Virus record (IMG/VR): IMGVR_UViG_2740892369_000023
Length of the DNA: 4,269 bases
Strand: one strand, 5' to 3'
DNA from: a virus
Lineage: Duplodnaviria; Heunggongvirae; Uroviricota; Caudoviricetes
Below, piece after piece: positions 1-4,269 of the stretch. The notes under the pieces are model-generated. The model searched no databases. It worked only from the letters and a program-made list of their open reading frames with translations, and had not been told where the DNA came from. The position numbers were made by a program, and so were the translations under genes. Positions within the stretch are counted from its first letter, which is position 1. Each line of letters opens with the position of its first letter.

Positions 1-43
1 TCATCAGATGGCTGCTTAAAAAAAGAACAAATGGTAGTGTCCG

Positions 44-985
44 CTATTGCCAGTACACCTCATTGTCACTGGAAGGCGGGTGGCCAACGCCAATCTTGTA
101 GGCCGGGACACGGAACACCGAACAGACAATTTCAGCCGTCATTTTCAGTTGTTCCACCGTCTGCGCATCCACCGGTGAAAACGTCGTGGGGCTGTATTTT
201 GCCCCGTTGCTCAGTATGGCCGTCTTCCCGGCATTTTCGCCCGTATATCCGCTGTCCCAGTTCCCCTTCAGTTTTTTCGCGTTTTCTTCCGTAATACTGC
301 CGGGGACCTCAATCACGCCTGATGGTCGCCCGCCATTTCTGAAAAAATACGTCGAATTTGCCTGAATATGATGCCCCTGCATGGCGGCCAGTCCTGCGGC
401 ATACACCGGCGGCAGCCCCACAAGCGGATGAAAAAAACAGTTAAAACGGTCGTGGATCACCTCCCGGGCAGGCACCGTCACCGACTCTGTGATCCCACAG
501 TTCCGGTCCGGCGTGATGCGGTAGAACACGTCGCCGTCATCCGCCACCAGAGGTTCAACCCGGTTCCAGTCCAGAATACGCAGTTCTTTGATCTGCCCCC
601 GGGGGTTGCGGATTTTCAGCACCACCGTATTGCCGTGACGCAATTTGGAATTCAGCCACAGTTCAAAAAACTGGATGCGATTCTGCTGCGCATTAGGACG
701 ACGACAGAGACGGGCAGTATCTCCCTGCCGCTTTTCCCGGCGTATTCCCTGTACATCAGTCTGCATCAGGCGAAGCCGCATTTTGGCGATATCCTGGGAT
801 ATCAGCGAAATGCATGAAAACACCGCGTGAAAGGACAAAACGGTTTCCGGATCGGCTTTCACACCCTGCTGCCAGGCACCGGCAAAAGGCTCAGCCACCG
901 CCTGAAACAGGGACCGCCAGCCCACTTCTCTTACGTCACGTCCTGATTTCTGGTTTTTTCGGGTTCGCCGCAAAAGGTTCCACAT
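44..985 (-). CDS. Phage portal protein, HK97 family (possibly C-terminally truncated)
   Basis: 313-codon minus-strand ORF. ATG at 983..985 is preceded by GGAG (994..997) with an 8-nt spacer; an in-frame stop lies upstream at 1001..1003. Portal-family motifs: PETVLSFHAVFSCISLISQDIAKMRLRLMQ, DGDVFYRITPDRNCG, STYFFRNGGRPSGVIEVPGSITEENAKKLKGNWDSGYTGENAGKTAILSNGAKY, and SPVDAQTVEQLKMTAEIVCSVFRVPAYKIGVG. Stop TAG at 44..46, only about 12 residues after the last motif. Confidence 0.85.
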   Translation of the reverse strand: MWNLLRRTRKNQKSGRDVREVGWRSLFQAVAEPFAGAWQQGVKADPETVLSFHAVFSCISLISQDIAKMRLRLMQTDVQGIRREKRQGDTARLCRRPNAQQNRIQFFELWLNSKLRHGNTVVLKIRNPRGQIKELRILDWNRVEPLVADDGDVFYRITPDRNCGITESVTVPAREVIHDRFNCFFHPLVGLPPVYAAGLAAMQGHHIQANSTYFFRNGGRPSGVIEVPGSITEENAKKLKGNWDSGYTGENAGKTAILSNGAKYSPTTFSPVDAQTVEQLKMTAEIVCSVFRVPAYKIGVGHPPSSDNEVYWQ

Positions 986-1152
986 TCGCCATGCTCCGCA
1001 TCACGTTTCTTTTTCTGACCTGCCGGACGTCGCGCTGTGATGTACTCCGCCTTCCCCAGGCGAACCAGCACCTCCGCACACGGCTGTGCCACATCACGGA
1101 TATCCCCGGCCCGGGCATCATGCGTGCCCTGCAGATACTGGATTTTTGCCAT
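931..1152 (-). CDS. Hypothetical small protein (73 aa) in the capsid-portal gap; uncertain
   Basis: Minus-strand ORF MAKIQYLQGTHDARAGDIRDVAQPCAEVLVRLGKAEYITARRPAGQ... with coding-like GC-rich codon choice in its first ~45 codons. It has no convincing Shine-Dalgarno at proper spacing, overlaps the portal start by about 55 nt in another frame, and I recognise no family. It could be a remnant. Confidence 0.2.
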   Translation of the reverse strand: MAKIQYLQGTHDARAGDIRDVAQPCAEVLVRLGKAEYITARRPAGQKKKRDAEHGECGTFCGEPEKTRNQDVT

Positions 1153-1196
1153 CTGTTACTGCGGGAAGCTCGCGCCTCCCGCCCTCCTCATCAGAC

Positions 1197-2558
1197 TCAG
1201 CCACCGGACGCAGTTCCGTAGTTCACACCGGTGATCACCGCCACTGCCGCGGTACGGCGACGACGCCAGTTGATCCAGCGCTCCGCACGGATGGCCACGC
1301 TGCCGGTCTGAAACATGGAGACCAGTTCCACCGGTGACGGTGTGCTGCTGTCGCTGGTCGGTTCAGACTGCATCTCCAGTGACGCTTCACGGGACATATC
1401 CACCGCCACACCGCCGTCATCAGCCAGATAAATATCCGGTGCATTCACCAGTACCAGCTGGTCACCCACATACTGGGAGACAATCACCGGCAGCCCCTGG
1501 AAGGTCCCGCCCAGCAAGGTCATGTCCGGATATTCCTTCTGCCCCAGCGCATTTTTACGCATGGACAGCGCCAGGGCATTGGTGCTGGACATCAGCCAGA
1601 CCGCACCGGTGGGCTGCAGATTTGCCGTCACAAACTGGCCAAACGCGGCCTCGGCATCCGCATCCGGGTTACCGGTTGATGCCGTGCCCTTCACATCATG
1701 GGTGATGGACGCCGGGGAGACATCCGCCACCGCCGCTTTTTTCGGGTCCACAAAGTCTGTGTCCAGACGCGCCACCACCGCTTCCGCCAGCGCATTACGG
1801 ACCAGTGCATCAGCAGCCGGACTGGAAAAACGGATCAATTCTTCCGTCAGTACCGCAATGGCCGACACTTTCGCATGACTGAAGGTGATGGATTCAAAAT
1901 CAAACTTCGTCAGGGGTCTGGCCTTACCCTCACCCACCCAGCCGGCAGCACCACCGGACACCTGGGCATGCACGCGGATATTGAACGGCACCTGACGAAG
2001 TGCAGGGATCCCGCCCTGACCAAATCGCCCGATAATGGTCTGCGGACGCAGGTAATCAATAAAGTCCTGCGCATATTCCTGGTATTCAGACAGGCTGCCT
2101 GCCCACTGCGGGTCCGTGGTGGTCCCTGCCCCCACCGCCGATTTCAGGACATGATGCAGACGGCTGTCATCCGGATACTGACGACGGGCCACTTCCAGGG
2201 CTTCAGAGCGGACACCTTTAGCCGCGGCCAGTGATTTGGCAAAGCGGGCGAAACCAATCCCCTTCTCCAGTTTCTGCTCAACACGGATCACCGGCGCTGA
2301 AGCCACCGTGGCCACATTCCCGTTACCGGCCTGTTTCACCGGCTGTGCCGTGGCGGCCTTACTGGTTTCCAGTTCACGCAGACGCTTCAGGTGCGCATCC
2401 ACCTGACGGATTTCCGCTGCGGTGTTGTCGTAGTGCTCTTCCTCTTCCACATCCAGTGTGCGGCCTTCCTCTGCGGCTTTGTTCATGATCTCCTCAAGGG
2501 AGGCTGCCAGCGCCGCACGCTTGTTTTCAAAACTTTTAATCTGTTCACCAGTATTCAT
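1197..2558 (-). CDS. Possible nested in-frame product: major capsid protein with its delta/scaffold domain, initiated internally at Met193 of the fusion ORF
   Basis: In-frame ATG at 2556..2558 (minus strand) preceded by AGGA (2569..2572, 10-nt spacer), sitting in a local AT-rich patch (2556..2600) that looks like a former intergenic region. The N-terminus MNTGEQIKSFENKRAALAASLEE resembles a capsid-protein delta-domain start. Hypothesis only; the full-length fusion may be the sole product. Confidence 0.3.
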   Translation of the reverse strand: MNTGEQIKSFENKRAALAASLEEIMNKAAEEGRTLDVEEEEHYDNTAAEIRQVDAHLKRLRELETSKAATAQPVKQAGNGNVATVASAPVIRVEQKLEKGIGFARFAKSLAAAKGVRSEALEVARRQYPDDSRLHHVLKSAVGAGTTTDPQWAGSLSEYQEYAQDFIDYLRPQTIIGRFGQGGIPALRQVPFNIRVHAQVSGGAAGWVGEGKARPLTKFDFESITFSHAKVSAIAVLTEELIRFSSPAADALVRNALAEAVVARLDTDFVDPKKAAVADVSPASITHDVKGTASTGNPDADAEAAFGQFVTANLQPTGAVWLMSSTNALALSMRKNALGQKEYPDMTLLGGTFQGLPVIVSQYVGDQLVLVNAPDIYLADDGGVAVDMSREASLEMQSEPTSDSSTPSPVELVSMFQTGSVAIRAERWINWRRRRTAAVAVITGVNYGTASGG

Positions 2559-3134
2559 TGCTGACTTTTCCTTATGAAAAGAGGTTATTGACTGTGCCGA
2601 AGCGCCGGCAGAAGATGCGATTTTCACCACCGGTTTCCGGTTGCCGGACGCGGCAGAAAACGGGCGGTCGTAAGATTTAATGGTCCGGATGGTGCATTCC
2701 GCATTCGCGGGCACGGTGACGGCAGACACCTCCATCAGCTCCCAGCGCAGAAAATGCAGTCCGCCTCCGTCCAGATAAGTGTATTCATGGGGCCGGAAGC
2801 CCACAGAAAGCCCCCTGACCAGCCCGGTCTTAATGGCAGCCCAGGCCTCATCCAGCCGGGCTGCCATCTGGGAGGGCATCCCCGGCTCCGGCTTCACCAG
2901 CATTGCCGTGATTTCCAGCCCTTCCCTGACCCGACGCACCGTACACTGGCCTACAGGGCGGGAATGGTCATGCTGCCAGAGAAACGGGATCGTACTGCCA
3001 AACTCCGCCCCCTCCGGCTCCAGGATGTCACCATCCCGATCCGGAGAAGGCGTTGACGCAATCCCGGTGATCACCCGTTCATCCTCACTGAAGGATTTCA
3101 CCGTCAGCAGGGAACAGGCCCGTTTAAGAGTCAC
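1197..3134 (-). CDS. Prohead maturation protease (HK97 gp4-like, peptidase S78/U35) fused in frame to a scaffold/delta-like linker and an HK97-fold major capsid protein
   Basis: 645-codon minus-strand ORF. Start is GTG at 3132..3134, preceded by AGGAGG (3140..3145) with a 5-nt spacer; no in-frame ATG exists between the terL stop and this GTG. Residues 1-160 carry prohead-protease motifs: GIASTPSPDRDGDIL, WQHDHSRPVG (His codons at 2970..2972 and 2964..2966) and RGLSVGF (Ser codon 2805..2807), then EVSAVTVPANAEC. Residues 193-260 are charged and coiled-coil-like (EQIKSFENKRAALAASLEEIMNKAAEEG ... LKRLRELETSK). Residues 330-645 look like an HK97-type capsid protein (QTIIGRFGQGGIPALRQVPFNIRV, SAIAVLTEELIRFSSPAADALVRNALAEAVVARLDTDFV, and a C-terminal SVAIRAERWINWRRRRTAAVAVITG). 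Stop TGA at 1197..1199. Confidence 0.9.
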   Translation of the reverse strand: MTLKRACSLLTVKSFSEDERVITGIASTPSPDRDGDILEPEGAEFGSTIPFLWQHDHSRPVGQCTVRRVREGLEITAMLVKPEPGMPSQMAARLDEAWAAIKTGLVRGLSVGFRPHEYTYLDGGGLHFLRWELMEVSAVTVPANAECTIRTIKSYDRPFSAASGNRKPVVKIASSAGASAQSITSFHKEKSAMNTGEQIKSFENKRAALAASLEEIMNKAAEEGRTLDVEEEEHYDNTAAEIRQVDAHLKRLRELETSKAATAQPVKQAGNGNVATVASAPVIRVEQKLEKGIGFARFAKSLAAAKGVRSEALEVARRQYPDDSRLHHVLKSAVGAGTTTDPQWAGSLSEYQEYAQDFIDYLRPQTIIGRFGQGGIPALRQVPFNIRVHAQVSGGAAGWVGEGKARPLTKFDFESITFSHAKVSAIAVLTEELIRFSSPAADALVRNALAEAVVARLDTDFVDPKKAAVADVSPASITHDVKGTASTGNPDADAEAAFGQFVTANLQPTGAVWLMSSTNALALSMRKNALGQKEYPDMTLLGGTFQGLPVIVSQYVGDQLVLVNAPDIYLADDGGVAVDMSREASLEMQSEPTSDSSTPSPVELVSMFQTGSVAIRAERWINWRRRRTAAVAVITGVNYGTASGG

Positions 3135-3146
3135 ATCAGCCTCCTG

Positions 3147-3172
3147 AAAATAAAAAAACCGCCGCAGCGGTT
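3147..3172 (-). terminator. Possible weak intrinsic terminator or attenuator between terL and the protease-capsid gene
   Basis: On the minus strand, just after the terL stop: CCGC-TGCG-GCGG (4 bp GC stem, 4 nt loop, extendable by two A-U pairs; plus coordinates 3157..3172) followed immediately by TTTTTTTATTTT (plus 3147..3158). Short stem, so it is weak at best. Confidence 0.3.
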
Positions 3173-3197
3173 CATGATGGTTACAGGGTGAGCAGGG

Positions 3198-4269
3198 TTA
3201 TATGAAAAAAACCTCATACGCTTTCTTTTTCGGTTCCGGATTCAGGGACATCAGGGACACCGCATTGAAGAGCGCCATCAGCGGGTCAATTTTTCCCCGT
3301 CCGCTGGCCTGTTTGGTGATAAGAATGGCGTTACCTTTAGGCTCCACCCGGGCATTACCGACACACCAGGCCATCAGGGGCTGATCACCGTGAATCAGCA
3401 CCCCTTCAGCCAGTTTGCGCTCGGTGGTTTTGATGGCCCCGCCCAGCTTCCAGCCCTGGCTTATCCCCACCACACTCTCATCGGGGATCCCGGCTTCCGC
3501 CAGTGAATCCAGAATCTGCCCCACACCTGACGGGTCAATACCGATATGATCCAGTAACTCAGCCTCATGAATACGACGCACATACTCCGCCACTTCCGCC
3601 GTGTCATCCCCGACCCGACGGACAATCGTCATGTCTCCACAGGCCACAAAATCCTGAAACCGGGATGCCTCACTCTTCCGTCTGACCACCGCGGTTTCAT
3701 GCACCCAGGCATGGCCCCAGCCCAGCCATTCGCGGGTTTCCCTGTCACGGCCAGTCACGTACATTCCCAGCAGATCATCCAGGCCCCCGCCGTCAATCCC
3801 CACCGTCACCACATCAGCGCGCTGCAGGATATCGTCCAGGCTGACGCGCCTGCCCTGCTGCTCCCAGAAATCCGCGCCCGCCCAGCGGTCAGAACGCAGG
3901 GCAAGACCGATTTCCACATTGGCGTGTTTTGACATGACGCCACGAAATGCTTCCTCACCAGCCTCCCGGGCTTTACGGTACTCCCGGTACAGAAAGGCCT
4001 CATCCACCGAATAACCGAGATTCGGGTTAACCATGGCGAGGTTTTCCATCAGCAGGTGAGCCCCGCTTTCCACCATTTCAGGAGGATGCTCAAAAATCAC
4101 CGGCAGAAAGTGCGGATCATGAATTTTGCCGTCACGGACATCCCGGGCATACTGCAGTTTCTGTCTGAACACCCCGGCGGGCGGTTCATTCGACTGGGTG
4201 GTCGTATACACCACAAACCCTTCCGGACGGGAGGCCAGCCCGCCGATGGCTTCACGTAGCATGTCTTCC
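3198..4269 (-). CDS. terL: Phage terminase large subunit, C-terminal portion (partial; 5' end lies beyond the window edge)
   Basis: Minus-strand ORF open to the window edge; the Met at 4262 in the ORF track is only the first in-frame ATG, and the two codons upstream of it (to 4268) are also sense codons. The translation has terminase large-subunit character: an acidic nuclease-domain stretch (VVTVGIDGGGLDDLLGMYVTG, then HIGIDPSGVGQILDSLAEAG) and a typical C-terminal tail (LMAWCVGNARVEPKGNAILITKQASGRGKIDPLMALFNAVSLM). The N-terminal ATPase (Walker A) region is not in the window. Stop codon TAA at 3198..3200. Assignment is by recalled motifs, not a search. Confidence 0.85.
   Translation of the reverse strand, partial: EDMLREAIGGLASRPEGFVVYTTTQSNEPPAGVFRQKLQYARDVRDGKIHDPHFLPVIFEHPPEMVESGAHLLMENLAMVNPNLGYSVDEAFLYREYRKAREAGEEAFRGVMSKHANVEIGLALRSDRWAGADFWEQQGRRVSLDDILQRADVVTVGIDGGGLDDLLGMYVTGRDRETREWLGWGHAWVHETAVVRRKSEASRFQDFVACGDMTIVRRVGDDTAEVAEYVRRIHEAELLDHIGIDPSGVGQILDSLAEAGIPDESVVGISQGWKLGGAIKTTERKLAEGVLIHGDQPLMAWCVGNARVEPKGNAILITKQASGRGKIDPLMALFNAVSLMSLNPEPKKKAYEVFFI

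Follow-up and report, generated by a model that had tools for sequence, protein, structure and literature searches.

How a phage head gene that carries its prohead protease and its major capsid protein in a single reading frame could bring only a few protease copies into each procapsid is the question raised by a 4,269-nucleotide (nt) stretch of Caudoviricetes DNA (IMG/VR virus record IMGVR_UViG_2740892369_000023), referred to here at its full length as the window. An initial annotation, made from the letters without database searches, read a prohead protease, a scaffold-like linker and a major capsid protein in one frame of 645 amino acids (aa) at 1197..3134, and proposed that the fusion would place a few protease copies in each procapsid. 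The frame is as described, uninterrupted in the open reading frame (ORF) list and lying on the minus strand, which that annotation left unstated, with a GTG start codon at 3134-3132 and a stop codon at 1199-1197. The proposed dosage stands only in part: a 645-aa product alone cannot give few protease copies, because one protease would sit on every subunit, and a second, protease-free source of capsid protein is therefore needed; a conserved in-frame start codon at Met193 suggests such a source, and a nested gene is the account favoured below. Taken as a whole, the earlier observation is confirmed and its interpretation partly supported.

Domain architecture and conservation of the fusion

Both domains that the initial annotation had expected from profile searches were found above their Pfam cut-offs, Peptidase_S78 (PF04586) towards the N-terminus (aa 48-152, covering profile positions 51-155 of 165; 33.3 bits, threshold 21) and Phage_capsid (PF05065) towards the C-terminus (aa 386-635; 55.5 bits, threshold 24.2). 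From end to end, the 645-aa protein aligns with PHROG 617 ("major head protein", 626 positions; E 1e-259); it is matched as well by PHROG 4523 ("major head and protease protein"), and its RefSeq entry is WP_044165271.1, 'phage major capsid protein'. Structure prediction with AlphaFold, built on an alignment of 37 sequences and reaching a mean predicted local distance difference test score (pLDDT) of 75, likewise returned an N-terminal domain, delta-like helices and an HK97-like C-terminal fold; the full-length model is read domain by domain only, because disordered linkers join the domains and its predicted template modelling score (pTM) is modest at 0.49.

In the model, the prohead serine protease domain (aa 1-144; 2703..3134, minus strand) is folded and rich in beta structure, with the assemblin-like fold common to T4 gp21 and the herpesvirus proteases; its sequence identity with T4 gp21 and herpesvirus assemblin is only 13-22%, T4 gp21 is a separate gene product with pro-peptides of its own, unlike the fused protease of the window, and a profile of the domain found no match among Protein Data Bank (PDB) sequences. 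The candidate catalytic motifs reported earlier as intact are conserved among relatives: WQHDHS occupies aa 53-58 and GLSVGF aa 108-113, and in the aligned sequences among 150 cluster representatives (38-54% identity) His55 (codon 2972-2970) is present in 145 of 145 and Ser110 (codon 2807-2805) in 144 of 145, with Glu135, Ser137 and Asn144 likewise conserved. From the range of the Pfam alignment, His55 and Ser110 are the probable counterparts of HK97 His65 and Ser114.

The model divides the segment first described as one scaffold-like linker into a disordered stretch (aa 145-192), the linker proper, and the delta/scaffold helices of aa 193-264; the scaffold-like helices of the earlier description are present, and the linker is separate from them. 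This linker (2559..2702, minus strand) has a pLDDT below 50, is weakly conserved with insertions and deletions (indels) among relatives, and holds an internal ribosome-binding site at its 3′ end. The ancestral gene boundary falls between the two parts, disorder stopping at aa 192 and the first delta helix beginning at aa 195. The delta/scaffold-like segment (2280..2558, minus strand) consists of a helical hairpin (aa 195-261), with long helices at aa 195-223 and aa 229-261 (pLDDT 85-89), followed by a second disordered stretch at aa 265-285; the helices would serve as scaffold, and no separate scaffold gene was found between the terminase and portal genes in the ORF list or in annotated relatives. 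The capsid body (aa 286-645; 1200..2279, minus strand) comprises a small helical part (aa 293-330) and an HK97 fold from about aa 345 to aa 645. Using Foldseek, the C-terminal part was matched to the capsid proteins of Bxb1, Muddy, D3, HK97 and T5 (E 7e-15 to 3e-9, probability 1.0); by sequence, a search of the whole protein against PDB chains gave a sole, marginal capsid match, again to Bxb1 (E 0.003). The AlphaFold domain layout and the Foldseek matches together show that the reading as protease, scaffold-like segment and capsid is correct. A 602-aa protein from E. coli O157:H- (P0005) lacks about 43 residues of the capsid body (GIGFARFAK...HHVLKSAV, window aa ~291-334), and may represent a defective allele or may indicate that this helical region is dispensable.

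The fusion is real and conserved, with both domains in one frame among relatives. A word-indexed search found 2,458 homologues, and among the best 120 of these nearly all are proteins of 640-650 aa with both Pfam domains, from Enterobacterales (Salmonella, Klebsiella, Enterobacter, Serratia, Pantoea and Kosakonia) and 73-77% identical to the query. An exhaustive search of 50%-identity representatives returned 1,180 proteins at E <1e-30; the 150 best of them (38-54% identity) mostly align over query residues ~3-642 and measure 630-680 aa. Scanning one genome per species gave 294 confirmed loci, and about 72 of the best 80 are fused, these best 80 coming from Gamma-, Alpha- and Betaproteobacteria and a few metagenome-assembled genomes labelled as other phyla.

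An artefact or decay (a lost stop codon, a frameshift or a pseudogene) might be suspected in a window that comes from a degraded prophage, with its portal gene cut by the insertion sequence IS600 and its tail genes gone. This explanation is refuted by the same frame in 1,243 complete E. coli genomes, and is further ruled out by its presence, at 95-100% identity, in inducible Shiga toxin (Stx) phages and by distant genera (38-77% identity) that keep both the length and the catalytic residues; we give it practically no credence, in agreement with the initial annotation, which had argued from the intact motifs that the gene was not decayed.

That annotation also contrasted the gene with the separate protease and capsid genes of canonical HK97-like phages; the fusion is, however, an ordinary one, already annotated and recognised in the phage literature, and is not new. 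GenBank labels for the gene read "putative major head protein/prohead protease" in BP-4795, "putative major head protein/prohead proteinase" in YYZ-2008 and "phage major head protein/prohead protease" in Stx2a_F349, and ORF003 of Pseudomonas phage PAJU2 is labelled "structural protein; prohead protease fused capsid protein". The BP-4795 and YYZ-2008 proteins are direct homologues, 95-100% identical and of the same architecture, and the PAJU2 homologue shares 48% identity over its full length and the same order of terminase, fusion, small ORFs and portal. Papers on actinobacteriophages describe fusions of protease, scaffold and capsid as common in small-genome siphoviruses (PMC7302621, PMC9671004, PMC6606914), gp5 of Pseudomonas phage MD8 combines protease, scaffold and capsid in a single gene (PMC8508860), with a protease that is ClpP-like, modelled on a ClpP template, and not S78 (PMC8508860), and analogous fusions have been reported in archaeal (thaumarchaeal) proviruses (PMC6563490). 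The window gene is likened to the actinobacteriophage and MD8 fusions by their published descriptions, and a small genome is not the driver here, because the genome of the phage in the window measures about 50 kb. Only the conserved internal start may be new: the BP-4795, YYZ-2008, PAJU2 and PHROG 617 records annotate neither an internal start nor a second product, and the searchable literature, in which coverage of key HK97 work is incomplete, yielded no statement either way on an internal start in such fusions.

A conserved internal start at Met193

The in-frame ATG of Met193 (2556..2558, minus strand) is the proposed start of a 453-aa short form consisting of the delta domain and the capsid protein, and is preceded at a distance of 10 nt by a Shine-Dalgarno (SD)-like TAAGGA (2569..2574, minus strand). 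Met193 is invariant in 12 enterobacterial sequences and opens the conserved motif MN(I/T)xEQIKSFE.KRAAL; the 20 residues before it are variable, with indels. The region upstream is too rich in indels for reliable codon alignment, and alignments anchored on the start codon were therefore used instead of an analysis of synonymous rates, with a sample of 71 fused genes (the window gene and the DNA of 70 related loci). An in-frame start codon stands at the position equivalent to Met193 in 70 of the 71 (65 ATG, 3 GTG, 2 TTG), such that valine at this position is encoded by GTG in three of three cases and leucine by TTG in two of three.

The motifs upstream of this codon across the fused genes include AAGGAGGG, GAGGAGGG and AAAGGA, alongside TAAGGA in the window. 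Mean anti-SD duplex energy at the internal site is -7.0 kcal/mol, against -2.3 kcal/mol at other codon positions (Mann-Whitney p 6e-31, with related sequences treated as independent), and equals that of the true 5′ starts of 69 related loci (-6.9 kcal/mol). Of the 70 fused genes with a start codon here, 66 have a four-nt SD core within -16..-5, the motif standing 6-12 nt ahead of the codon, compared with 12% of other codon positions, and 47 have a five-nt core, compared with a background of 2.6%; a start codon and an SD core occur together at only 0.6% of other codon positions. Purines account for 93-96% of bases at positions -12..-9 before the internal start, and the motif is still found in 51 of 55 loci once close enterobacterial relatives are dropped. 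The frame thus contains an in-frame internal start with a ribosome-binding site conserved across relatives.

These signals bear directly on a second account of the gene, in which the 645-aa polyprotein is the only product, every subunit carries a protease and all of them self-cleave, the internal ATG and its SD being leftovers. A relic would not be expected to retain a start codon in nearly every fused gene, down to 38% protein identity and within a linker that is rich in indels and elsewhere free of constraint, nor to limit its non-methionine replacements to GTG and TTG (five of six), nor to keep an SD that matches true gene starts in strength. Some features do speak for a single product: the frame is uninterrupted; published accounts mention only a fusion (PMC7302621, PMC8508860 and the PAJU2 annotation); and in the window the SD of the long form, AGGAGG (3140..3145, minus strand; 5 nt before the GTG), is stronger than TAAGGA. 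A single product implies some 415 protease copies per T=7 shell, and by a rough estimate as many extra domains of 21 kDa would fit a T=7 procapsid. On balance, a gene with the polyprotein as its sole product appears a possible but rather doubtful explanation.

Further evidence is provided by relatives in which the two functions are encoded separately. Separate protease and capsid genes are present in seven of the best 80 loci (L069, L070, L071, L073, L076, L079 and L080), as well as in Moraxella phage Mcat5 and in phages of Burkholderia and Stenotrophomonas. In the seven split loci and Mcat5, for which the junctions were read, the capsid gene begins at the equivalent of Met193, with N-termini such as MATYAEQIAAFE or MKTIAEQLEAL, and stand-alone capsid proteins and split loci start at query aa 193-197. 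The stop and start codons overlap as ATGA in L069 and Mcat5, so that a change of one base would suffice to pass from either state, split or fused, to the other. Split forms are scattered over no fewer than four separate places among fused forms in a neighbour-joining tree built from the capsid portion (split L070, for example, is the sister of fused L027), and a capsid gene translated from the Met193 site is therefore viable. No sigma-70-like promoter that could give a separate capsid transcript was detected within the ORF by a promoter scan.

Since the start codon and its SD are conserved, and since the capsid genes of unfused relatives start at the same position, the ORF is probably a nested gene. 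We consider it reasonably likely, from comparison of sequences, that two in-frame products sharing a C-terminus are made and that both are placed in the procapsid lattice. Ribosomes initiating at GTG 3134 would produce the 645-aa long form, with protease, linker, delta domain and capsid, and those initiating at the internal ATG 2558, with an SD of its own, would produce the 453-aa short form, with delta domain and capsid only. The two forms would co-assemble into the lattice through their common delta and capsid domains, each long form bringing one protease inside the shell, so that the protease dose would depend on how often ribosomes initiate at one site relative to the other. Once the procapsid is assembled, the Ser/His protease would remove linkers and delta domains, its own tether included, leaving all subunits as identical mature capsid protein; for the sites at which S78 proteases cut, no dependable sequence rule is known. 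The use of both starts, the ratio of the forms, their co-assembly and self-cleavage are thus predictions from the sequence, and self-excision of the protease, as suggested in the initial annotation, is a reasonable one.

Long and short forms need not both enter the lattice, and a third account has the long form as a non-structural carrier that supplies the protease without taking a lattice position, being packaged by delta contacts or acting in trans before it is degraded. The free protease of HK97 is packaged by means of its C-terminal tail and not as a lattice subunit, and the proteases of split relatives keep a conserved tail, ...KPFVIR.I... (shared by L070, L071 and L076, and more loosely by L080), which the fused forms lack. 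The capsid domain of the long form is complete and identical to that of the short form, no sequence feature bars it from the lattice, and a covalent link in place of the tail fits delivery through the lattice; a carrier role is accordingly an improbable reading. The KPFVIR tail may be a capsid-targeting signal made needless by covalent fusion, and its loss would fit a covalent tether that replaces a non-covalent targeting signal.

Several points weigh against a nested gene. The internal SD of the window (TAAGGA, -6.2 kcal/mol) is only moderate, ranking among the best 12.5% of the positions along that ORF, and one of the 11 other in-frame ATGs there has an equally good SD. L068, a fused locus, has CTG at the equivalent position and no start nearby, which also favours a single product. 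A start codon and SD could linger temporarily as relics of repeated recent fusions, and the internal site may be masked in part by ribosomes that are translating the long form. In this genome the gene may build no heads at all, the prophage being a remnant with an incomplete portal gene. The case as a whole is made from DNA and protein comparison, and a literature search found no virion proteomics for this group of E. coli phages.

The head module and its prophage

The 645-aa ORF is the head gene of a widespread HK97-type temperate phage family, represented here by a lambdoid E. coli prophage of Stx1a/Stx2c type. The window DNA corresponds, at 99-100% identity, to part of the late genes of lambdoid phages that convert to Stx1a, Stx2c and, in some cases, Stx2a; at least 80% of it is present in 1,243 of 5,426 complete E. 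coli genomes, and the same or nearly the same DNA occurs in about 180 phage records. Genes on the minus strand follow the order terminase small subunit, terminase large subunit, 645-aa gene, 73-aa ORF and portal. The terminase large subunit gene (3198..4269; Pfam TerL_nuclease, RefSeq) lies directly upstream in the operon, with only its 3′ part inside the window, from which it runs off. In the gap that separates its stop codon from the fusion gene's ribosome-binding site, a consensus scan found a terminator-like GC hairpin and T-run (3147..3173, minus strand), which may be a terminator that late antitermination overrides, may stabilise the mRNA or may mark a processing site; a homologue is present in 21 of 69 related loci, all of them in Gammaproteobacteria and none alphaproteobacterial, with differing loop and stem sequences.

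Downstream, the 73-aa ORF (931..1152, minus strand) has no assigned function (PHROG 829, unknown function, E 8e-39; no Pfam family) and overlaps the portal start by 55 nt; a small ORF occupies the same interval between capsid and portal in related phages. The portal gene (62..985, minus strand) is truncated at its 3′ end, matching only positions 2-241 of 321 of the Pfam Phage_portal profile and carried in RefSeq as a pseudogene 'missing C-terminus'. It is interrupted after ~308-313 aa by an IS600 end (1..61, no strand assigned), phage records matching the window only from position 63 and an IS3-like IS600 transposase being annotated alongside. The exact window, bases 1-62 included, matches E. 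coli strains such as 97-3250, and in 97-3250 and its relatives type III secretion system effector genes (NleG family, EspW) have taken the place of the remaining portal sequence, the connector genes and the tail genes. The window copy is therefore an intact fusion gene within a defective prophage remnant, given the IS600 cut and the replaced head-tail module.

The canonical order of these genes is terminase, portal, protease and capsid. The order terminase large subunit, protease-capsid, one or two small ORFs and portal is non-canonical yet conserved (window 44-4269; L001, L020, L027, L035, L048 and L082), and ranges from E. coli to Pseudomonas (PAJU2), Microvirga and Paracoccus. Immediately after the portal, a further gene (L001 4339-5562, minus strand; L020 7583-8689; L027 8402-9409; L048 7537-8493) encodes a protein of 320-410 aa for which Pfam gives only sub-threshold matches (CBM_5_12 and, in one case, collagen-repeat); its label in LC567827 as a second 'phage portal protein' looks like a mis-annotation.

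Relation to known head genes and significance

The window gene and the HK97 genes for gp4 and gp5 (MEROPS S78 and a delta-domain capsid protein, respectively) share the families PF04586 and PF05065 and the order protease, delta domain and HK97 fold. A separate scaffolding gene is absent in both, and unfused members of the window gene family keep the HK97 arrangement. Unlike HK97, the window gene is one frame, its module lies between terminase and portal rather than after the portal, and its capsid protein has the additional helical part (aa 293-330) ahead of the HK97 fold; from split relatives, the fused forms differ in having no protease C-terminal tail.

Nested in-frame head genes with a shared C-terminus are known from lambda (C/Nu3), Mu (I/Z) and herpesviruses (UL26/UL26.5). 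There, a long form with the protease and a shorter one from an internal in-frame start end in a common assembly domain, the relative use of the two starts governs how much protease the procapsid receives, and the internal start has been shown experimentally. The common part is a scaffold in those viruses and later leaves the capsid, whereas in the window gene it would be the capsid protein itself together with its delta domain, and the internal start is a prediction from sequence. By extension, we lean slightly towards regarding the 'fusions' of this family as nested genes in general, with the short form as the capsid protein and the protease as an N-terminal extension on a minority of lattice subunits.

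The same gene is labelled in different records (LC567827, AP012536, NC_049941, ON470625, NZ_CP027599) as 'phage prohead protease', 'major head protein', 'major capsid protein', 'capsid and scaffold' or 'hypothetical protein'. Its annotation ought to name the two functions together, perhaps with a second coding feature, and putting this right affects many records, because about one in four complete E. coli genomes carries the gene, Stx-converting phages included. Should the nested reading hold for the family, switching between fused and split states would be nearly neutral, since the capsid start is functional in both, and the protease dose of each capsid would be set by two initiation rates and not by a binding signal. 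If the internal start is used, the gene would bear on how proteases are targeted into HK97-type capsids and would offer a simple natural case of an enzyme-to-shell ratio set by translation.

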